In this document: positions 3,385 to 33,149 of the stretch, one piece after another
How positions within the stretch are numbered: the first letter of the stretch is position 1
Layout of the letters: each line of letters opens with the position of its first letter
Source of the DNA: an uncultured Acidobacteriota bacterium
GTDB taxonomy: Bacteria > Acidobacteriota > Blastocatellia > RBC074
DNA: 64,000 nt
Assembly: GCA_963796275.1 (NCBI GenBank)
Contig: CAWCKY010000001.1
Location: forward strand, 1,024,001 to 1,088,000
Reading direction: 5' to 3'
The notes under the pieces: model-generated
What the model saw: only the letters and a program-made list of their open reading frames with translations
Told to the model about the DNA's origin: nothing
Databases searched by the model: none
Made by a program: the position numbers and the translations under genes

Positions 3385-5421
3385 TTATTGCTTCACGGCC
3401 GCCGCCACATCCTGCTTGAGCGTGACAGCATGATTGTCTTGCTGGTGCATTGTGTCGAACGCGCGCTTCAGCGCCTGATAAGTGGTTTTCGGAAAGACCA
3501 AACCGCTGAATTTCAGGTTTCGTTTGTAGACGAGCGTCTTCTTATCCTGTGTGATCGCCAGATTGACCTCGTATCTGCCCACTTCGCCCAGGTTGAAGCT
3601 GGCGGGTGATTCGGCATTGTCGAGCGCGAAACCGTCCGGCAGATCGATAGTGACATTGTCCTCTTCCATCCACGGGAAGTGGAAATATATATCGTGCCTG
3701 CGATCGCTCGTCGGGAAGAGAGGTCCGATGCCTTTCTGAAAGAATGCCGGTTGGAGAAATATTCGCTTGCCCGTGCGTTCGGCAAATCCGGGCACCCGCA
3801 CCTTGTATGAATAGATCAGCGGCTTGAACGGGTCAGTTACCTCCTCGAGCTTGATATCGGTAACGTCTACATTGCCGAGCCGCGATTGAACAGTCTGGCG
3901 GACGTGTTCCTCGCGTTCGCTCGCCGATTCCTCATCATGATTTTCCTTATTGATGGCGGCAAAATGGCCGGTGTATTCGATCCGCACCTCGCCCTCGAGC
4001 GTCCCGTCTTCGCGCAAATGCAATTTGGCAGAGCGCTTTTGTAACGACTTTTCGGCCGGTGATATCGGAGTATTGATGAAGACCGGCTCCTTCGGATCGG
4101 CGACCAACGCCGGCTGCCCTTCCTGCTGCCAACGCAACATCCCCAGCGGCACGTATCGGCTCGATGGATCGAAGAATCTCCATTCTTCTCCGACCTTTAC
4201 CGCGATATCGTAAACATTGAGAAAGTAGTCATCGGCGATGTTCGGATCGAAGAAGATATCGTTGCGATCAGGTAGATTGATGATCCGCGCCTCAAATCCG
4301 GCAGCCATTGCCATTGCGGCGAAGAGCAGGTCGATATCTTTCCCGTGGCCGTATCCGCGTTTGATCGTGTCGGCGGGCGACCGGTTCTCCTTCAGCTTCT
4401 TACGCTCCTCATCGCTCAGAGTCGTCATATCGTCATGAACGTTTTTGATCCGGGTGCGGCAGAAAGCGAGAATGCGCTCGAGCTTTTGTTCGGGAGAAGG
4501 GGCCTCTCCGATCACGTCCGCTGCAGCTTTCCTGATTTCATCATTGACCTTTAACAAACCTTTGTTCGAATCGTAAACAGACTTCCCGTACTCCTTCCAG
4601 AACTTAGCGGGGACGATCTTCTCGTTCTTTGAATAATAGAGCAGCATCCAGGAACGCACTTGATCTTCGGGAGGCATGCGCGGCTCTTCTACGAATGCGG
4701 GGACATTGGTCTGGCCCGTACTCACATATCCGTCCTTCTCTTTGGTGAACGAGGTGGCTTGCGCGTGGAAGGTGACCGAACGCATCGCTAATTCAATGTC
4801 GCTTAGCGGTTTGATGTAGTACTTGACTGATTGGACCGGTATCTCCCTCTGGAATTGGAGACGCGTGTAGAGACTGAACGGCCGTTGTTCATTCCAACGG
4901 TATTCTATGATCGACCCTGGCTCAACCGCAGGCATGGCAAAGGATTTGGACTTGAACTTGAGTCCGCTGAGGCGAACGATCTCGCGGTCGAAGATCGAAT
5001 CCTTCTTCAACTCGACGATCGTTCCGTCCGGTTTAATAGTGCGTGCGGCTATATCGCGAATATTTACCTTGCCGAAATATAGCAGATCGACCTTGCCGTG
5101 CTTCTCGATTCCGCGATCATTGAATATTTTTATCCTCAGATAATGGGAAAGAACCTGGCGCGCGTAACTCCCATCCCATTCGTCTTTCAGATAGACTTCC
5201 CAGAATATAGCCTCGGCATCCGCGTCTTTTTCGACTGCCGGCGCATTGAGTGCGAGATGTGACGGATCGATCGGTTTCCACTGCTGAGCACGGACAGTCG
5301 TCGAACTTATTAACAGACAGGAAAGAAACAGCACAAAAACGAACGGGGTACACGAGGCAAACGCACACACAGCAAACGGGGTAAGCGCCTCCCGTGCGGC
5401 AAATGGGGGATACGGATTCAT
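3385..5421 (-). CDS. DUF3857/transglutaminase-like paralogue with degenerate triad
   Basis: Same architecture (VEPGSIIEY, FDPS, IDLPDGF), but GYGHGKD at the GDCKD position; start may lie downstream. Confidence 0.85.
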   Translation of the reverse strand: MNPYPPFAAREALTPFAVCAFASCTPFVFVLFLSCLLISSTTVRAQQWKPIDPSHLALNAPAVEKDADAEAIFWEVYLKDEWDGSYARQVLSHYLRIKIFNDRGIEKHGKVDLLYFGKVNIRDIAARTIKPDGTIVELKKDSIFDREIVRLSGLKFKSKSFAMPAVEPGSIIEYRWNEQRPFSLYTRLQFQREIPVQSVKYYIKPLSDIELAMRSVTFHAQATSFTKEKDGYVSTGQTNVPAFVEEPRMPPEDQVRSWMLLYYSKNEKIVPAKFWKEYGKSVYDSNKGLLKVNDEIRKAAADVIGEAPSPEQKLERILAFCRTRIKNVHDDMTTLSDEERKKLKENRSPADTIKRGYGHGKDIDLLFAAMAMAAGFEARIINLPDRNDIFFDPNIADDYFLNVYDIAVKVGEEWRFFDPSSRYVPLGMLRWQQEGQPALVADPKEPVFINTPISPAEKSLQKRSAKLHLREDGTLEGEVRIEYTGHFAAINKENHDEESASEREEHVRQTVQSRLGNVDVTDIKLEEVTDPFKPLIYSYKVRVPGFAERTGKRIFLQPAFFQKGIGPLFPTSDRRHDIYFHFPWMEEDNVTIDLPDGFALDNAESPASFNLGEVGRYEVNLAITQDKKTLVYKRNLKFSGLVFPKTTYQALKRAFDTMHQQDNHAVTLKQDVAAAVKQ

Positions 5422-5862: not shown

Positions 5863-6052
5863 TGTTAATAAATGCCCTCCTGTTCCTGGCTGTTGCGCAC
5901 GAATAAGAGGCTGATAAAACTAAGATTTGATGCAAGACACGATGGTCATCCAGAATCTATCAGCCTACTCCATGTCCAATGTAATTATGGTAGCAGGCAA
6001 ATTCGGTTTGATTGTCACTGAAGAAGGCAGAGCCTGCTATTCCACTAGCGAT

Positions 6053-9227: not shown

Positions 9228-9243
9228 TGGCCTCTAACTTGCT
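9228..9243 (+). promoter_or_regulatory. sigma54 promoter for candidate sRNA 1
   Basis: TGGCCT-CTAAC-TTGCT, GG-N10-GC. Confidence 0.7.
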
Positions 9244-9253
9244 TATTTAATAC

Positions 9254-9414
9254 GTGAGCGTTATAGGTTCTTGCAACGCACAACGGCATGAATACTGAAC
9301 ATGCAGGGAGCAGTATAAAGGAGCCAGGTGGGGAGCTGGCTCTTTTCGTGCCGAATTCAAAGCTGTCCTGAGTAGAGTTCTTGAAAGGCTACTTTGCTCT
9401 GGGCAGCTTTTTTT
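9254..9414 (+). ncRNA. Candidate sigma54-dependent sRNA 1
   Basis: Starts 12 nt after the -12 box; 5' hairpin, three-way junction (9284-9353), terminator stem 9359-9410 plus T7; G-U pairs favour the plus strand; no credible ORF. Confidence 0.65.
9359..9414 (+). terminator. Rho-independent terminator
   Basis: AAAGCTGTCCTGAGTAGAGT / ACTTTGCTCTGGGCAGCTTT followed by TTTT. Confidence 0.8.
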
Positions 9415-11282: not shown

Positions 11283-11298
11283 TGGTCTGAGCTTTGCA
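11283..11298 (+). promoter_or_regulatory. sigma54 promoter for the DUF883/holin/DUF3618 operon
   Basis: TGGTCT-GAGCT-TTGCA, GG-N10-GC. Confidence 0.6.
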
Positions 11299-11413
11299 AG
11301 AAAGGCTAGGGAGACTCATCGCTAAGATTGAAAAAGACCTGGGGGAGAGCGAGTTACACAAAAATGATTTGAGCTACCTCTGGGGATTAAAGGCATTGAG
11401 TTACTAGGAGGAG

Positions 11414-11806
11414 GTGAACATGGATAGGATGGATAGGACGGAATTCAAGTCTAACCGGGAGTACCAGGATAATTTGCATCAGGATGAAGAAGTGTTGAGG
11501 GAGCAGGGTTATATGGCTGGAGGGGGTATGACTTTTGATCGGGTGAAGGCGGCGGTGGCAGATTTTTTATATGAGGCAGCTGAAGTGATCCATCATAAAA
11601 GTTTAGGGACCGGCAGTTCCGAAATATCGAATTTCGGTGACCGTGCCGCTAACTGGTTGGAGCATTCAGCCGGCTATGTGAGGGAGATGGAGCCGCAGCA
11701 GTTAAAGGCGGATTTCGAAGATAAAGTCCGCCGCCATCCGGGGCGGAGCCTCATAATCGCCGGGGTGGTAGGGCTGGTTATAGGCAGCGTGATTCGCAGG
11801 AGGTAA
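11414..11806 (+). CDS. ElaB/YqjD (DUF883)-like C-tail-anchored protein
   Basis: C-terminal VRRHPGRSLIIAGVVGLVIG-RRR; strong AGGAGGAGG RBS. Confidence 0.75.
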   Translation: MNMDRMDRTEFKSNREYQDNLHQDEEVLREQGYMAGGGMTFDRVKAAVADFLYEAAEVIHHKSLGTGSSEISNFGDRAANWLEHSAGYVREMEPQQLKADFEDKVRRHPGRSLIIAGVVGLVIGSVIRRR

Positions 11807-11810
11807 TTAT

Positions 11811-12230
11811 ATGTTCGAGCGGCACGGACAGGAGAGGATTTTATATTCATCATTGCAGCGCGAATCGATTGGAGATCTGCTCAGCAACCTGGCGGCTCAA
11901 TCGACCACTCTCGTGCGCGACGAGATCGCGTTGGTCGGGCGCGAATATTATGAAAAGGGAAAGCATGTTCGGCCGGCGTTGATCGTGCTGGCCGTTGGCG
12001 CCTTTCTCGCTATGCTCGCATCGGTGACCCTCTGCGCGGCGATTGTCCTTTTCATAAGTCAATATATTGACATCTGGATTTCTGCTGCGATCACAGGAAT
12101 CAGTTTAGGGATTATCGCCCTGTTGATGATTTTGGTCGGCGTCAGCCGAATGAAGCAGACAAGCCTCAGGCCTGAGCAAACTTTAAAGTCGCTGGAGGAG
12201 AACAAAGAATGGCTGAAAGAAATTACCTAA
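11811..12230 (+). CDS. Phage-holin-like (Phage_holin_3_6 type) membrane protein
   Basis: SIGDLL...LVRDEIAL, two TM helices, PEQTLKSLEENKEWLK tail. Confidence 0.8.
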   Translation: MFERHGQERILYSSLQRESIGDLLSNLAAQSTTLVRDEIALVGREYYEKGKHVRPALIVLAVGAFLAMLASVTLCAAIVLFISQYIDIWISAAITGISLGIIALLMILVGVSRMKQTSLRPEQTLKSLEENKEWLKEIT

Positions 12231-12670
12231 CTGAGGGCCGCCCAGCTTCTGCTTCGGCTCATGCTCCGGAACGTAGTGCTGAAGAGATTCGGAAGGACAT
12301 CGCATCGACGCGCGAGTCGATCACCGAAACGGTGGATCAGTTGAGTGATCGTTTCGGGCAGACTTTAGATTGGCGCACGTACGTATCGGATCATCCGCTG
12401 GCTGCTTTGGGGGTGGCGGCAGGGATCGGATTTTTGGCAGCGGGATTATTCAGGCATCGCGCTTCGGCGAAAGATCGCTTTACGGATGCTTTGGCCGATG
12501 CAGTCGAAGATATGTCGGAACGATTTCGTAATCACCTCGATGGGCTGGGTTTGAAAAGACCCGGCCTGGCGATGACGATGAGAGCGGCGGCAGCCGGTGC
12601 GATTGCCAGAGCTGCAACCGCCTATTTGAGTAGCCGTGTCGTTGGTGGCGACAACTACAAGAACTCATAA
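12209..12670 (+). CDS. DUF3618-domain protein
   Basis: RSAEEIRKDIASTRESITETVDQL; HPLAALGVAAGIGFL; overlaps the upstream gene. Confidence 0.8.
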   Translation: MAERNYLTEGRPASASAHAPERSAEEIRKDIASTRESITETVDQLSDRFGQTLDWRTYVSDHPLAALGVAAGIGFLAAGLFRHRASAKDRFTDALADAVEDMSERFRNHLDGLGLKRPGLAMTMRAAAAGAIARAATAYLSSRVVGGDNYKNS

Positions 12671-12690
12671 AACGGAATGAAGGAGGAAGT

Positions 12691-13155
12691 ATGGCAGACA
12701 CACCAAGAAGCGAACAGAATCAAGCGAAACAGGCCACACCGGGAGGCCAGACTGCCGAACAGATAGCCAGCGCGGCGCGGCAGGCTCGCGGATATATGTC
12801 AGACACAGAGCGCCAAACGGGGCAAACAGGGCAAACGGGGCAGGCTGGGCAAGCGGGACAGGCCGCTCAGAAGGCGAAAGAGAGAGTATCCGATATGGCC
12901 GGCCAGGCACGGGAGACTATAAATCATGCCTATTCTCGCGCTAGTCGTGGGATGAACGAGACCTGGGACCAGGCGATGGTTTACAGCAAAGACCATCCGG
13001 CAACGGCTACCCTGGTGGCTTTCGGAGCGGGGCTCGGGATCGGCCTCTGCATCGCAGGGACTTTCGGCGGCCTACAGTCCCGCAGCCGCGCACGCCGTAT
13101 AGTACCTCCGATAATGAACGCGCTTTCGGATATTGCCCGGGAATTTTTCCGTTGA
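12691..13155 (+). CDS. DUF883/YtxH-like stress protein with GQT/GQA repeats
   Basis: GAGGAAG RBS; HPATATLVAFGAGLGIG anchor; nonamer-coded repeat near 12813-12866. Confidence 0.7.
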   Translation: MADTPRSEQNQAKQATPGGQTAEQIASAARQARGYMSDTERQTGQTGQTGQAGQAGQAAQKAKERVSDMAGQARETINHAYSRASRGMNETWDQAMVYSKDHPATATLVAFGAGLGIGLCIAGTFGGLQSRSRARRIVPPIMNALSDIAREFFR

Positions 13156-13190
13156 TAACGGTTCAGGAACGAATAAATGATACCGAAACC

Positions 13191-13258
13191 GTCCCAGTTG
13201 CCCCAGTCGCCCCCATTGTCCTTGTTGTCCCAGTCACCCCGGTCGCCTCGGTCGCCCC
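13191..13258. repeat. Degenerate nonamer tandem repeat (GYCCCAGTY-like), intergenic
   Basis: gtcccagtt gccccagtc gcccccatt gtccttgtt gtcccagtc accccggtc gcctcggtc. Confidence 0.75.
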
Positions 13259-13284
13259 TTTCCGAGGTTGAAGGAGAAGAATCG

Positions 13285-14934
13285 ATGCCCAAAGAGAAGC
13301 GGACCATTCTCCTCGTCAGTAAAAATAATACGGATCCTCAGCCCTGGCGGGAGTATCTGGAGACCGACGACGCAATCGACTGGTCATTCATCGAGGAAGA
13401 GTCGGCCGCGAAAGCTGCGACGAGCTGTCTGCTGATCAGACCCGATTGTCTTCTGGTCAGCGGAACCCCATCGGGGATCAATGATGTGCTGGCGGCTCTG
13501 CAGGAATCGATAGACCAGATTCCGGTGATCGTGATCACCGATTCGGGCGGGGATGAATCTTTGGGACCAATTGGAAGAGAAGTGGGAGAGTGTCTGAATC
13601 GTGAGGCTGTCTCGTCCGGCGTTCTCCGCCGGACTGTCAGCCGAGCGATAGAGATGACCAGGATGCAGTGTCTGGTTGAACAACAGGCGCGGCAGATCGA
13701 TGAACTCAATCTGCGGTTGGAGACCGAACGGGGCCAGATGATGGAGCGCGAAAGGCGGGCGCGCGATCTGGCCGAAGCGGTCAACCGGGATAAGGATGAA
13801 TTCATTGCGGTCGTCTCACACGAATTGCGAGCCCCCCTCAATGCCATACTCGGTTGGGCGCGCATTCTCAAAATCGGGAAATACAACGCAAAAACATTCG
13901 AGCATGCGGTCGATGTGATCGAACGCAGCGCCCGTACCCAGCAGCGATTGATCGAAGACCTGCTCGACACCGCGCGGGTCATCAGGGGGAAGCTCCGATT
14001 GGAGACCAAACCCGTCGATCTCGCCCGGGTCATCGAGGCTTCCGCCGATTCCGTTCACCCGGCCGTCGAGGCTAAGGGCATAGATTTAAAATTGAAACTG
14101 AAGGGTAAGAACAATGTCATTACGGGTGATGCGGACCGGCTGCAGCAGGTAGTCTGGAATCTGTTATCGAATGCCGTCAAATTCACGCCCGAGGGGGGGC
14201 AGGTAGAGGCTCAACTCGAACGGGCGGACCCTTATTTACAAATTATCGTGAGAGATTCGGGCAAAGGCATCAGCCGCGATTTTCTGCCCTATATCTTCGA
14301 TCGATTTCAGCAGGCCGATCTGGCCAGCAGGCGCCGCCACAGCGGGTTGGGGCTCGGCCTGGCGCTCGTACGGCATCTCGTCGAGCTGCACGGCGGAACA
14401 GTCGAGGCCGATAGCGCGGGTGAAGGGCAAGGATCTACCTTTATTGTGAGGCTCCCGCTTCCGGCTATTCGGCAGCGAGTCGATGAAAAGAAGCAAAGTG
14501 CCCGCGATAAATCGGTTGCCATCAGCTCCTACTCGCTCGACGGCATACGCACGCTGGTGGTGGATGATGATCCGGATGCGCGCGATCTCGTGGCCACCTT
14601 GCTGCGGCAATATGGCGCCCATGTCACTACAGCGGCTTCCGCCTCGGAGGCGCTCGTATGCATAACATCCAGCGATTCATCCAATCGAGCCGAGATTCTG
14701 GTCTCTGACATCGGGATGCCGGAAGAAGATGGATACTCCTTGATCGAGTCGATACGGCGACTCGCCCCCGAAGATGGAGGTTCCATTCCTGCCATCGCGC
14801 TCACCGCGTATGGGCGCGCGAGCGATCGCATCAGGGCGCTTTCAGCGGGTTTCCAAACGCATATGCCGAAACCCGTCGAACCCGCAGAGCTTGTCATGGT
14901 GATATACAGTTTGACGGGCCGCGCCAGTTATTGA
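13285..14934 (+). CDS. Hybrid sensor histidine kinase (degenerate REC - HisKA - HATPase - REC)
   Basis: SHELRAPL, NLLSNAVKF, DSGKG, GLGLGL, VSDIGMP; GAAGGAG RBS supports a start at 13285 rather than 13177. Confidence 0.93.
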   Translation: MPKEKRTILLVSKNNTDPQPWREYLETDDAIDWSFIEEESAAKAATSCLLIRPDCLLVSGTPSGINDVLAALQESIDQIPVIVITDSGGDESLGPIGREVGECLNREAVSSGVLRRTVSRAIEMTRMQCLVEQQARQIDELNLRLETERGQMMERERRARDLAEAVNRDKDEFIAVVSHELRAPLNAILGWARILKIGKYNAKTFEHAVDVIERSARTQQRLIEDLLDTARVIRGKLRLETKPVDLARVIEASADSVHPAVEAKGIDLKLKLKGKNNVITGDADRLQQVVWNLLSNAVKFTPEGGQVEAQLERADPYLQIIVRDSGKGISRDFLPYIFDRFQQADLASRRRHSGLGLGLALVRHLVELHGGTVEADSAGEGQGSTFIVRLPLPAIRQRVDEKKQSARDKSVAISSYSLDGIRTLVVDDDPDARDLVATLLRQYGAHVTTAASASEALVCITSSDSSNRAEILVSDIGMPEEDGYSLIESIRRLAPEDGGSIPAIALTAYGRASDRIRALSAGFQTHMPKPVEPAELVMVIYSLTGRASY

Positions 14935-15033
14935 TTGCTTTAGGCGTATTGAATGTTCAGAAACAAATTTCCGGAATCCGCAATCTATGCGCATCCGTCA
15001 ATAAACAGTCCGCAATCAAGAAAGAGGGAAGTC

Positions 15034-16635
15034 ATGAACAGAGCAAAGGTGCTTGTTATCGACGATGATCCTGAAATGCTCGATCTGACCCAGTATGAGC
15101 TGCAGACCCGTGGTTATGAGGTGATTACGGCGAAGAATGGCGAGGAAGGGTTGAAAATTATTGGCGAACACGGCGTCGACGTCGCGCTCACGGACCTCCA
15201 GCTTCCTGATATTCACGGAATTGAACTGGTCGGGATGTTGAAGGAGATTTCGCCGCGCACGGAAATAATCATGGTGACCGGCTACAGCTCGCTCAACGAT
15301 GCTATCGGCGCGATCAAGGCCGGCGCATTTTATTTCATCGAAAAGCCGGTCGAATTCGAGGAACTGTCTCTCCTGCTCGAGAAGGCTATCGAACGCGGCA
15401 GCCAGGCCGAGGAGATCAAGAACCTGCTGGGACGATTGAGCGAGCGAACCTCGTATTACAATCTGATCGGCAGCAGCAAGGCCATGCAGGATATCTATGA
15501 GATTATCGAAGGCGTCGCCGAATCGGACGCCAACATAATGATCTTCGGCGAATCGGGGACCGGCAAGGAGTTGATCGCAAATGCTATCCATTATAAGAGT
15601 CTGCGCGCCAAGAAACCGTTCGTTAAGATCAACTGCTCGGCGCTGCCGAAAGAGCTGATCGAGTCGGAGCTATTCGGTCATACCAAAGGCGCATTCACCG
15701 GCGCGGCGACCGAGAAGACCGGATTGATCGGGCAGGCGAAGGGGGGCAGCCTCTTGCTTGATGAGATCGGTGAGATGCCCGTTGAATTGCAGCCCAAGCT
15801 TCTGCGCGTACTGCAAGAGCGCGTCTACTATCGGTTAGGGAGTGAAAAAGCGCTCGAAGCCGACTTCCGGTTGATCTCGTCGACCAATCGCGATCCGCTG
15901 GTGGCGATCCGCGATGGGCATTTGCGTGAAGACCTTTACTACCGCATCAACACCATCGAAATTCACGTACCGCCTCTGCGCGACCGCGCGGAAGATATCC
16001 AGCATCTGGCCGAATATTTCCTGAAAATATATGCTGAAAAGTACCATCGCCAGGTGCACTCGATATCACAGCACGTCTATGAACGAATGTTCGAGTATTC
16101 TTGGCCCGGCAACGTGCGCGAGCTGCAGAATGTCATCGAGCGTGCGGTCCTACTCAGCAAGGGAGATATGATCGAAGAGAGCATCCTGCCCACGGCTATC
16201 TCGGTACAGCCGGAGGCAGCCAGTGTCCCGGTGCCGGAATCATCACTGCCTGCGACCGGCAGCAAATCTGAAGCAGGGGTGTCAAATGCACAGGATTTGA
16301 CGCTGGAGCAGATGGCCTGGTTGATAGTTAACCGAATCCCGGATTCGAAGGACGGGAGGCATCGAACCGACACGATCAAACAGTTTGAAGGCGCCATCGT
16401 CAACGCCGCTCTCGAGCGCACGAGAGGCAACAAGCAGGCGGCTGCCAACCTGCTCGGCCTCTACCGCCCCCGCCTTTACACGCTGCTGAGAAAACACAAC
16501 CTGGGCAAGACGATCCGTGAAGTCGACCGGTCTATCACAGATGCCGAGCTGGAAGAACAAGAAATGGCTGAGATGGATTCTCACGCTATGGTAGATAATG
16601 GGCTTACTCACACGATGCGTTCGGCGGGAGACTGA
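15034..16635 (+). CDS. NtrC-family sigma54-dependent response regulator (REC-AAA-HTH)
   Basis: TDLQLP, GESGTGKE, ESELFGH, GAFTGA, WPGNVRELQN, Fis-type HTH GNKQAAANLLG; acidic C-terminal extension. Confidence 0.96.
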   Translation: MNRAKVLVIDDDPEMLDLTQYELQTRGYEVITAKNGEEGLKIIGEHGVDVALTDLQLPDIHGIELVGMLKEISPRTEIIMVTGYSSLNDAIGAIKAGAFYFIEKPVEFEELSLLLEKAIERGSQAEEIKNLLGRLSERTSYYNLIGSSKAMQDIYEIIEGVAESDANIMIFGESGTGKELIANAIHYKSLRAKKPFVKINCSALPKELIESELFGHTKGAFTGAATEKTGLIGQAKGGSLLLDEIGEMPVELQPKLLRVLQERVYYRLGSEKALEADFRLISSTNRDPLVAIRDGHLREDLYYRINTIEIHVPPLRDRAEDIQHLAEYFLKIYAEKYHRQVHSISQHVYERMFEYSWPGNVRELQNVIERAVLLSKGDMIEESILPTAISVQPEAASVPVPESSLPATGSKSEAGVSNAQDLTLEQMAWLIVNRIPDSKDGRHRTDTIKQFEGAIVNAALERTRGNKQAAANLLGLYRPRLYTLLRKHNLGKTIREVDRSITDAELEEQEMAEMDSHAMVDNGLTHTMRSAGD

Positions 16636-16667: not shown

Positions 16668-16889
16668 ATGAACAAGGAAAGAAAAGATGACCCGAAGCCT
16701 AAACCTCCACCCGCCCCCCAACTGCCCAACCTCCCATGGAGCCCTGACGATCCTTTCCAACTGGATCCGGAGCGAAAAGAGCCAGTTACTACAAGTCTGC
16801 CAGAAACAGAAAAAGAAAATGATGGGGCAACGCCGCCGGCGCGACCAAAACGCGAGAGACGAGAAAATGAAGAAAGTAATGAGCAATAA
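16668..16889 (+). CDS. Small Pro/Glu-rich hypothetical protein
   Basis: Follows the regulator on the same strand with purine-rich upstream sequence; low complexity. Confidence 0.45.
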   Translation: MNKERKDDPKPKPPPAPQLPNLPWSPDDPFQLDPERKEPVTTSLPETEKENDGATPPARPKRERRENEESNEQ

Positions 16890-17052
16890 CTATAATAGAA
16901 CACACACAGGTATTTTTTTAGTACATAGACATGACTTTCTTCAATCCATTTTAGTTATTATGTACACATAAAATTCCTATTTCTCGCATCGAAATATCTC
17001 CAAGCATACAGAATATAACAAGTTGAGTATTTTAGAAAAATCGCAATGTTAA

Positions 17053-17068
17053 TGGCATTGAGGTTGCT
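17053..17068 (+). promoter_or_regulatory. sigma54 promoter for candidate sRNA 2
   Basis: TGGCAT-TGAGG-TTGCT, near-consensus, with AT-rich upstream DNA. Confidence 0.8.
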
Positions 17069-17078
17069 AGGCAGTTGA

Positions 17079-17219
17079 TGACCATTTTAACGAATGGTCA
17101 GCTCAAGTACAGGCGAGGGACTTTCGGGGGAGTGAGTTCCTCGCCGTCATGAGTTGGGATGGCTGCTTGCGAATAGCTGTCACACGAGGGAAAGCTATTC
17201 TCAAGCAGCCATTTCTTTT
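17079..17219 (+). ncRNA. Candidate sigma54-dependent sRNA 2 (three stem-loops)
   Basis: TGACCATT/AATGGTCA at the predicted +1; long stem 17100-17155; terminator stem 17160-17211 plus TTTCTTTT; G-U pairs on the plus strand. Confidence 0.7.
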
Positions 17220-17357
17220 GACATCGATACCGAACAGCGCCGGAGGTTAGTCAAACTTATGCTTGGCAGCCATAAGTTACCTTCTGGCGCTCGTCCTAGC
17301 TATTCTGGCGATACCAAGGCGTATTTCCTCTACCTTGTCGTGGTATCGATGTATGAA

Positions 17358-17876
17358 TTATCGAACTGTCGTATACTCGCGCGTATAGACCGGCCGGAGG
17401 TCTCTCTCCTCAACAACCACCTCAGTCAGCGATAGTGACCGAACACCTATTTGGAGTCCCTCATTGAGTTGTTGAATCAAGATGACCCGTCCATTATTGA
17501 ACCGGAGCGCGTCTCGGTAGACGTACGGCTTATCAGTTATCTGAGTGAAGGTAGCTTCCTCTCTTTCGTTTAGGCCGTGCTCTTTCTGAAGACGCGCCGG
17601 GATGCCCTGAACATCCAGCCGTGCACCCGGCGGAATACAGACCGCGGGCAGCGCTCTCTCGATCTGTCCGTTGGCTGATTCCATCCCACGATCCATCCAC
17701 GTTTTGAATCTCATCCATAAACTGGATTCCGCTGTGACCTGATATTGTTTCTTTATCTTATCGAGGTCAGTCGGCGATGCCAGCCCTTTCGAACCAGAGA
17801 GGAATCTGTGGACGAAAAGCGTTTCGCCTTCAACGGCCAGACGGTTTTTAAAGCTATGCAATGAATAGTCGCACAT
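17358..17876 (-). CDS. Conserved hypothetical protein of the MCDYSL...AVC(I/L)xPG type
   Basis: AGGAGG RBS; MCDYSLH, AVCIPPGARL and YRDALRFNNG motifs. Confidence 0.8.
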   Translation of the reverse strand: MCDYSLHSFKNRLAVEGETLFVHRFLSGSKGLASPTDLDKIKKQYQVTAESSLWMRFKTWMDRGMESANGQIERALPAVCIPPGARLDVQGIPARLQKEHGLNEREEATFTQITDKPYVYRDALRFNNGRVILIQQLNEGLQIGVRSLSLTEVVVEERDLRPVYTREYTTVR

Positions 17877-18241: not shown

Positions 18242-18333
18242 CGCGGCGGCCCGAGACGACTGCTTTCTCCTGAATTTCTGTGAAAGTTGTATAACAGAAA
18301 TTCAGGAGAAAGCGGTCGTCTCGGGCCGCCGCG
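18242..18333. repeat. 40-bp near-perfect palindrome with a 12-nt loop
   Basis: 18242-18281 versus 18294-18333, 39/40 complementary. Confidence 0.92.
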
Positions 18334-32702: not shown

Positions 32703-33149
32703 TCACCAGAGATGCTTTTCACTGTAATCAACACCGCACGATTTCAGAAATAATAGATATTCTTCCTGAAATGTCTTGTGTTGATGATGTATTTCCTGTC
32801 TTGCGATGTAATCCCTTACGGTTTGGCGTTGTGATGGGCTGACTGTGAAAGCTCCGTATCCTTCCTGCCATGAGAAGAGCGGTTGCTTCAGTTCCTGATG
32901 CACCCATTTTGATGATGAAGCCTTGATCTCTTTCAGGACCTCCGATAACTGATGTGTGGCGCGCAATCCTGCCAGCATATGAACATGATCCTCAACACCG
33001 CCCACGGCTTCTGGGATGCCTCCCAGATCGCGCATTATCCCACCCAGATAGGAGTGCAACCTGTCACGCCAGTCTCGGTGAATATATGCGATGCGGTCTT
33101 TGGTGCTGAATATTAGATGATAATGTAGGCTGAGATGTGTCGATGGCAC
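32703..33149 (-). mobile_element. tnpA: IS200/IS605-family Y1 (HUH) transposase, REP-associated (RAYT-like)
   Basis: HLIFSTK, DHVH (HUH), WQEGY, YIARQ; flanked on both sides by inverted REP-like arrays; no tnpB. Confidence 0.92.

Follow-up and report, generated by a model that had tools for sequence, protein, structure and literature searches.

A candidate sigma-54-dependent small RNA gene downstream of an NtrC-type activator gene in an uncultured member of the Acidobacteriota

A candidate RNA gene behind a kinase-activator pair

Positions 17079 to about 17219 (plus strand) of the window, that is, of the whole 64-kb stretch of DNA analysed here, probably represent a stand-alone gene for a sigma-54-dependent, non-coding regulatory RNA of about 140 nt, as judged from the sequence and its comparison with relatives. 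We infer that the element is transcribed under the control of an activator, that the RNA acts in trans and that its loops form the active site. The activator encoded at 14953-16635 would be the one that drives it, the pointer to this being its adjacency. The genes and sites that define the locus are as follows.

13177 to 14934, plus strand: soluble hybrid histidine kinase with HisKA, HATPase_c and receiver domains (Pfam)
14953 to 16635, plus strand: NtrC-family sigma-54 activator with receiver, AAA+, AAA lid and HTH_8 domains; presumed activator of the RNA
17053 to 17068, plus strand: predicted sigma-54 (-24/-12) promoter TGGCATTGAGGTTGCT, composed of TGGCAT (17053-17058), N5 and TTGCT (17064-17068)
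17876 to 17358, minus strand: convergent downstream gene for a 172-aa protein of no known family, with a good ribosome binding site (AGGAGG, 5 nt, ATG)

Judged by its domains and motifs, ORF 14953-16635 encodes a genuine sigma-54 activator. It matches the Pfam family Sigma54_activat with E = 2.2e-67, in addition to Response_reg and HTH_8, and carries GESGTGK (Walker A, residue 199), GAFTGA (residue 246) and DEI. The true start of the kinase is probably ATG 13285, since its orthologue in the related locus L001 (see below) aligns from residue 32 onward. Neither the kinase nor the activator matched an NCBIfam equivalog at cut-off that would point to the signal sensed by the pair.

The activator gene ends 417 nt before the promoter, and 139 nt separate the end of the predicted RNA from the stop codon of the convergent 172-aa gene. 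Between the activator gene and the promoter lies a 73-aa ORF, possibly a gene (16668-16889, plus strand), of low complexity and rich in Lys, Pro and Glu; neither Pfam nor NCBIfam gave a match for it, and L001 lacks a counterpart. Further downstream, just past the stop of a glycine-zipper protein gene (see below), a 40-bp inverted repeat with 98% complementarity and a 12-nt loop occupies nt 18242-18333. It could be an unusually long terminator or else a palindromic element, and a search against Rfam gave only sub-threshold eukaryotic miRNA models. Elsewhere, the window harbors a gene for an IS200/IS605-type Y1 transposase (nt 32703-33149, minus strand; PF01797, E = 9.5e-23). No rpoN, hfq or csrA gene was found among the 56 ORFs of the 64-kb window that were scanned against Pfam.

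Promoter and predicted transcription start

The sequence-only reading of this DNA had proposed a near-consensus sigma-54 promoter at 17053-17068, and the present analysis agrees. Its GG and GC elements are 10 bases apart, the same spacing as in the TGGCAC-N5-TTGCW consensus quoted in PMC4253122. The strict pattern TGGCAYNNNNNTTGCW matches twice in the 64-kb window, counting both strands, against an expectation of 0.12, and two or more matches were reached in only 1 of 100 shuffles. The other match lies 3 kb away:

19677 to 19662, minus strand: strict sigma-54 promoter TGGCACTATTCTTGCT, preceding the glycine-zipper protein gene (19603 to 18413, minus strand)

Taking the C of the GC element as -12, the -24/-12 rule places the predicted +1 at nt 17079, which is also the first paired base of the first hairpin, SL1 (U17079-A17100). 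A start at about 17079, on the first base of a hairpin, had been proposed before and agrees with both the rule and the minimum free energy (MFE) fold. In L001 the promoter, TGGCACTGGGGTTGCT (11862-11877), occupies the same place relative to the RNA. Of the promoter stretch ATGGCAYTGRGGTTGCT, 15 of 17 bases are identical between the two genomes, while the DNA upstream of the promoter is unalignable. When the regions upstream of 10 promoters were searched for shared perfect dyads that might serve as an enhancer, none stood out; nor did the best shared 8-mer (one mismatch allowed), which was present in 9 of the 10 regions compared with 7-8 of 10 in shuffled sequences.

Predicted fold and terminator

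The plus strand of nt 17079-17222 (144 nt) is predicted to fold with -76.0 kcal/mol (z = -8.25), and none of 200 shuffled sequences folded as well. The structure has three hairpins:

17079 to 17100, plus strand: SL1, 5' hairpin starting at the predicted +1, with 9 pairs in the MFE fold
17101 to 17154, plus strand: SL2, long interrupted stem with the exposed loop UUCGGGGGAGUG at 17123-17134 (MFE fold)
17126 to 17133, plus strand: conserved core GGGGGAGU of the SL2 loop, kept in L001
17156 to 17215, plus strand: SL3, intrinsic-terminator-like hairpin with core arms 17159-17181 and 17190-17212 and a loop containing GAGGGAA
17212 to 17219, plus strand: T-tract TTTCTTTT following SL3, read in the sequence

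The long stem that had been described at 17100-17155 was recovered, together with its loop, as SL2, and the terminator stem with T-tract (17160-17219) and GAGGGAA loop as SL3 and TTTCTTTT. The GGA of the SL2 loop has a mean unpaired probability of 0.83. SL3 is absent from the list produced by a simple terminator scan, which allows loops of at most 8 bases, in our opinion because a mismatch in the inner stem lengthens its loop past that limit. Both strands are unusually structured, the opposite strand having a predicted energy of -61.7 kcal/mol (z = -8.49), so that the plus strand folds about 14 kcal/mol better. This is the direction of difference to be expected from the G-U pairs noted earlier, which work on the plus strand only. 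The T-tract also follows a hairpin on the plus strand only.

No known RNA family could be recognised. Rfam 15 (4227 models), run at gathering thresholds over the whole window and L001, returned no match, and with E values of up to 10 the element and its L001 homologue gave only hairpin noise (eukaryotic miRNA and snoRNA models). A comparison with known families had been suggested along with the original proposal, and it leaves the RNA without a namesake among the Rfam models searched.

Conservation in related genomes

Relatives were collected by one scan of a genome collection with the activator protein as query, which gave 22 loci. Seventeen of these are MAG contigs of Acidobacteriota, Blastocatellia or Pyrinomonadaceae, with identities of 52-78%. 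A homologue of the RNA was found in one of the 22, L001, whose activator is 78% identical. The support comes from blastn (E = 2.4e-5), a covariance model (28.7 bits, E = 1.4e-4) and two diagnostic motifs. Across the window and all 22 loci, GGGGGAGTRAGTTCC and CCGTCATGAGT occur only in the window element and in L001. The covariance model was built from the window sequence alone, and the alignment it imposed on L001 was poor in SL1 and at the base of SL2; run with default filters, it had no hit in the remaining 21 loci.

The layout in L001 is an orthologous kinase-activator pair, then the promoter, then the RNA (about nt 11889-12056). The L001 RNA starts with a UGACC...GGUCA hairpin at +2 of its own promoter, keeps the base, middle and apical helices of SL2 with the loop CCUGGGGGAGUA, and ends in a terminator with T-tract. 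It folds into the same architecture (z = -5.17). The 5-bp base of SL1 (UGACC/GGUCA) is identical in both genomes, and its top is longer and of different sequence in L001 but paired in both. SL2 of L001 carries an inserted, self-contained extra hairpin of about 21 nt, and the size changes between the two RNAs are made up of whole extra helices. In the stretch from the activator stop to the glycine-zipper gene, alignment with L001 is confined to two segments, the promoter (17052-17068) and the 3' part of the RNA (17117-17226, 72% identity), and the gene downstream of the RNA differs between the two genomes. Base pairs compare as follows.

SL3 (MAFFT/RNAalifold): 20 pairs, of which 16 unchanged, 3 with one-sided change, 1 with double change (U-A to C-G), 0 broken
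SL1 base and SL2 (register set manually by us, guided by structure and biased towards it): 22 pairs, of which 18 unchanged, 3 one-sided, 1 double, 0 broken
SL2 alone (same manual register): 17 pairs, of which 13 unchanged, 3 one-sided, 1 double, 0 broken
Total (two sequences only, window and L001): 42 pairs, of which 34 unchanged, 6 one-sided, 2 double, 0 broken

MAFFT with RNAalifold gave a good alignment for SL3 and for the second RNA described below (sRNA-B) only. Applied to the whole RNA, SL1 or SL2, it misaligned the length-variable helices and yielded no useful consensus.

Nine further loci, L002-L010, preserve the synteny of the kinase-activator pair (62-68% identity), and in none of them was an RNA homologue found by blastn, a relaxed -24/-12 scan, motif search, the covariance model or reading of the gap downstream of the activator. 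Other sigma-54-like promoters were seen there downstream of the activator, without a homologous RNA. Since these loci keep the synteny and show no homologue, the RNA family is either narrow or quickly diverging. Conservation of the whole unit behind an orthologous activator, which the original proposal had listed as something to check, therefore stood in L001, with promoter, three hairpins and terminator, but did not extend to the nine syntenic loci. Likewise, structural conservation is seen in L001 (0 of 42 pairs broken), but the other 21 of the 22 loci are without a homologue.

Two other promoter arrangements were observed around the activator relatives. In L003 a strong sigma-54-type promoter, TGGCACTCTGCTTGCC, at nt 3600 (minus strand) is directed towards the 3' end of the activator gene and is followed by no long ORF; it may belong to another small RNA, or to a gene for a small protein, in the corresponding position. 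In the Pyrinomonadaceae loci L011-L014 and L017, a divergent pair of strict sigma-54 promoters (in L011, at 3093 on the minus and 3257 on the plus strand) precedes the activator relative and another pair follows it, which suggests autoregulated sigma-54 circuits of another layout, with no homologous sRNA.

A second candidate RNA and the local promoter cluster

A second candidate sigma-54-dependent sRNA (sRNA-B) and several sigma-54-like sites lie upstream of the kinase gene:

9228 to 9243, plus strand: promoter-like sequence TGGCCTCTAACTTGCT
about 9254 to 9413, plus strand: sRNA-B, ending in a terminator
9595, plus strand: sigma-54-like site before a ClpB-D2-like AAA+ gene (relaxed scan)
11133, minus strand: sigma-54-like site before a DUF5670 gene (relaxed scan)
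11283 to 11298, plus strand: sigma-54-like promoter TGGTCTGAGCTTTGCA ahead of the operon 11414-13155, which encodes an unknown protein, a holin-X-like protein and DUF3618/DUF883 proteins

No other DNA segment is as well conserved between the window and L001 as sRNA-B. Nucleotides 9256-9413 are 87% identical over 158 nt to L001 734-890, the first ~60 nt being identical, compared with 66-75% for the genes. In L001 it is preceded by a sigma-54-like site, TGGCCCGCAAGTTGCA, at nt 706. Its fold has z = -4.23, and of 52 consensus pairs (MAFFT and RNAalifold) 3 show double and 7 one-sided changes between the two genomes, with none broken. sRNA-B has no Rfam match. An ORF of 27 aa (23 aa in L001) overlaps it.

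Sigma-54-type promoters were found in both genomes before the glycine-zipper gene, the DUF883 operon, the ClpB-like gene and sRNA-B. The members of this cluster in L001 are at 1339, 5881, 15052 (minus strand) and 15391. Among them, TGGTCTATACCTTGCA at 5881 precedes the operon orthologous to 11414-13155, and TGGCATTAACTTTGCT is found upstream of the glycine-zipper orthologue (70% identity; the window gene encodes 396 aa). The cluster around the kinase-activator pair has the look of a local regulon for stress or envelope functions.

L001 also contains long, near-perfect palindromes of similar 'cgaaacaagcgaaaa'-type units, at about nt 905-1080 and 12083-12170, which have no equivalent in the window. 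They are situated right after the terminators of both candidate RNAs and have the appearance of a MITE or REP-type element with terminators as its target.

Alternative explanations

Several ORFs overlie the element, namely 25 aa (TTG 17075; 24 aa from ATG 17078), 33 aa, 33 aa on the minus strand, and 93 aa (TTG). The last has no Pfam match. The 33-aa ORF starting at ATG 17149 was considered and rejected, as only 6 codons are left in L001. More serious is the 24-aa ORF (ATG 17078 to TGA 17150-17152), which the sequence-only reading had itself offered as an alternative, and which would be translated from a leaderless mRNA, with the transcript being either a messenger or a dual-function RNA. This frame is open in the window (MTILTNGQLKYRRGTFGGVSSSPS), and the L001 frame ending at the same conserved TGA is also open, giving 33 aa from a GTG at its +1. 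The two peptides agree in the two residues that follow the start and in a C-terminal GGVSS.PS, and the net difference in length is 27 nt, i.e. in frame. Their middle parts, however, are unrelated, and the conserved 5' block of SL2 (17101-17113, corresponding to L001 11918-11929) is read in different frames. The added length in L001 consists of a hairpin complete in itself. A Shine-Dalgarno sequence is lacking, and the -24/-12 rule puts the first base of ATG 17078 at -1, outside the transcript; the L001 counterpart would need a leaderless GTG, which is a poor start codon for leaderless translation. Open frames of 24-33 codons are not rare by chance. What survives of this proposal is an open frame in both genomes; the evidence leans against its translation, which we regard as quite improbable, and the RNA is apparently non-coding.

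If the RNA is non-coding, the hairpins could still be mere terminators or insulators between the kinase-activator operon and the convergent gene 17876..17358, with the promoter-like site silent or incidental. SL3 does sit between convergent genes, and no obvious terminator was seen from the activator stop (16635) to the element, so that read-through from the operon would end at SL3. Read-through from cbrB into crcZ provides a precedent (PMC5113210), and non-productive sigma-54 sites are reported for E. coli (PMC4591121). In L001, however, a strong hairpin terminator (about nt 11729-11790) belongs to the activator gene itself, and the promoter-RNA unit nevertheless persists downstream of it, with a downstream neighbour that is not the same as in the window. 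Moreover, a terminator would require neither the promoter, nor SL1 placed at +1/+2, nor an unpaired SL2 loop, yet all three are conserved. An insulator role without an RNA product appears rather unlikely. A related view, that the RNA regulates the 172-aa gene in cis, by antisense or convergent transcription, draws on the closeness of this opposite-strand gene, whose stop codon is 139 nt from the RNA end, and on its good ribosome binding site. The gene has no tblastn match in L001, where the RNA is conserved, and the RNA's own terminator precedes it, making such a role very unlikely. Least credible of all, and close to negligible, is that the element is a copy of a REP or MITE-like repeated palindrome with promoter-like bases by chance. 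Long hairpins outside the unit do occur nearby (18242-18333), and L001 has the palindromic repeats right behind both candidate RNAs (about 905-1080 and 12083-12170). Against this, covariance model and motif searches detected a single copy in each of the two, the 64-kb window and L001, at syntenic places, the three hairpins are mutually different and without terminal repeats, and there was no Rfam match. A REP-like nature had been named at the outset as something that would speak against an sRNA; the single copy in the 64-kb window and the lack of an Rfam match are not what such an element would show.

G-rich loops and a possible mode of action

The preferred reading, a stand-alone sigma-54-dependent regulatory RNA, directs attention to the loops. 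These contain GGGGGAGU in SL2 and, in SL3, AGGGAA in the window or GUGGGGAG in L001. The loops of sRNA-B carry CAGGGAG and GUGGGGAG (GAGGGGAG in L001). In either genome, each of the two candidate RNAs thus has about two copies of the common Shine-Dalgarno-like motif, RGGGAR. Of the GGA triplets in the window RNA, that at position 51 of the RNA has an unpaired probability of 0.83 and that at position 111 one of 0.37, the other two being paired; the L001 RNA has one clearly exposed GGA (0.98). Sites complementary to the loops (ACTCCCC or CTCCCCC) were sought in the window and L001, and none was found at orthologous positions near gene starts. The SL2 loop also resembles GGGGGAGAGCGAGTTAC (nt 11343, in the leader of the 11414 operon; 3 mismatches), but the likeness is not kept in L001 and was judged to be due to chance.

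The following sequence of events would account for the locus. The hybrid kinase (13177/13285-14934) would phosphorylate the NtrC-type activator (14953-16635), whose AAA+ domain, with its GAFTGA motif, would then open the sigma-54 closed complex at 17053-17068. Transcription would begin at the first base of SL1, a hairpin that may shield the 5' end, and SL3 with its U-tract would end transcription and make the 3' end. The working surface may be the exposed, conserved, G-rich loop of SL2, GGGGGAGU, probably aided by the GGGA-type loop of SL3. Acting in trans, the RNA could either pair with C/U-rich stretches of target RNAs or mimic a Shine-Dalgarno sequence and so hold a binding factor. It may be part of a local sigma-54 regulon, made up of small stress and envelope proteins, to which sRNA-B (9254-9413) would also belong.

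A more specific version would be that the kinase-activator pair controls a sigma-54 stress regulon in which two unrelated RNAs (17079-17219 and 9254-9413) serve as decoys, each displaying two RGGGAR/GGGGAG loops and titrating a motif-binding translational repressor, either of the CsrA type or other. We put this forward as speculation that is, on the whole, unlikely to be right in this full form. If true, it would mean a sigma-54-driven, Csr-like post-transcriptional switch in the Acidobacteriota. No useful information on how widely CsrA occurs in Acidobacteria came out of a literature search.

Comparison with known systems

Acidobacteriota are abundant soil bacteria, and to our knowledge almost none of their RNA regulators has been studied experimentally. 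We found no characterised sRNA regulon in this phylum. The statement in the sequence-only reading that no such system was known there is in line with our literature searches, which, within the parts of the publications that were accessible, found no sigma-54 (RpoN) sRNA in Acidobacteria or Acidobacteriota. The locus would form a compact circuit of kinase, activator, one or two candidate sigma-54 sRNAs and co-regulated stress/envelope genes, and the G-rich, Shine-Dalgarno-like loops common to two unrelated RNAs offer a handle for finding the partner, whether mRNA or protein. Known sigma-54 sRNAs include both types of partner, as shown by NrsZ (acting on rhlA) and CrcZ (acting against Hfq/Crc).

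The likeness of the layout to cbrAB-crcZ and nla19-pxr, pointed out in the original proposal, is borne out by PMC5568312 and PMC5113210, and nrsZ, which follows ntrC (PMC4253122), can be added. One close parallel is Pxr of Myxococcus xanthus, an intergenic RNA encoded after nla19, a gene for a sigma-54-dependent response regulator, and transcribed from its own sigma-54 promoter; it is 108 nt long and predicted to form a triple stem-loop with a terminator, the last stem-loop being the most variable (PMC5568312). The present RNA resembles it in gene order, sigma-54 promoter and three hairpins with terminator, and the loop and upper stem of SL3 are likewise what varies most. Unlike Pxr, it comes from another phylum, is longer (about 140 nt), has G-rich loops and shows no similarity at the sequence or Rfam level. 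Rfam does hold a Pxr model.

In Pseudomonas, the promoter of CrcZ needs RpoN and the adjacently encoded activator CbrB, read-through from the activator gene being possible, and the RNA, which is much longer, binds Hfq/Crc through A-rich motifs and antagonises them (PMC5113210). The series of kinase, NtrC-type activator and sigma-54 sRNA on the same strand is shared with the present locus, whereas the A-rich motifs are absent here, with G-rich loops in their stead and no Rfam match. NrsZ of Pseudomonas aeruginosa lies between ntrC and PA5126, has a promoter of the TGGCAC-N5-TTGCW type, and was found through an RpoN box in an intergenic region; it consists of repeated stem-loop modules, is processed, and controls rhlA post-transcriptionally (PMC4253122). 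The present element also lies between an activator gene and a tail-to-tail neighbour, has the same type of promoter and came to light by the same logic, but no repeat modules were seen in it and it has no sequence similarity to NrsZ.

A further comparison is with the protein-sequestering RNAs of the CsrB, RsmY and RsmZ type, where hairpin loops likewise show GGA-containing, Shine-Dalgarno-like motifs (here RGGGAR). The known CsrB/Rsm-type families have many exposed motifs per RNA, compared with 1-3 here, and the promoter in the present case is of the sigma-54 type instead of a GacA/UvrY-dependent sigma-70 promoter; again there is no Rfam match. The design of an activator gene followed by a sigma-54-dependent sRNA gene is itself well known, and its occurrence here will seem plausible rather than surprising to the specialist. 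What the locus would add is the extension of this design from Proteobacteria and Myxococcota to a distant phylum.
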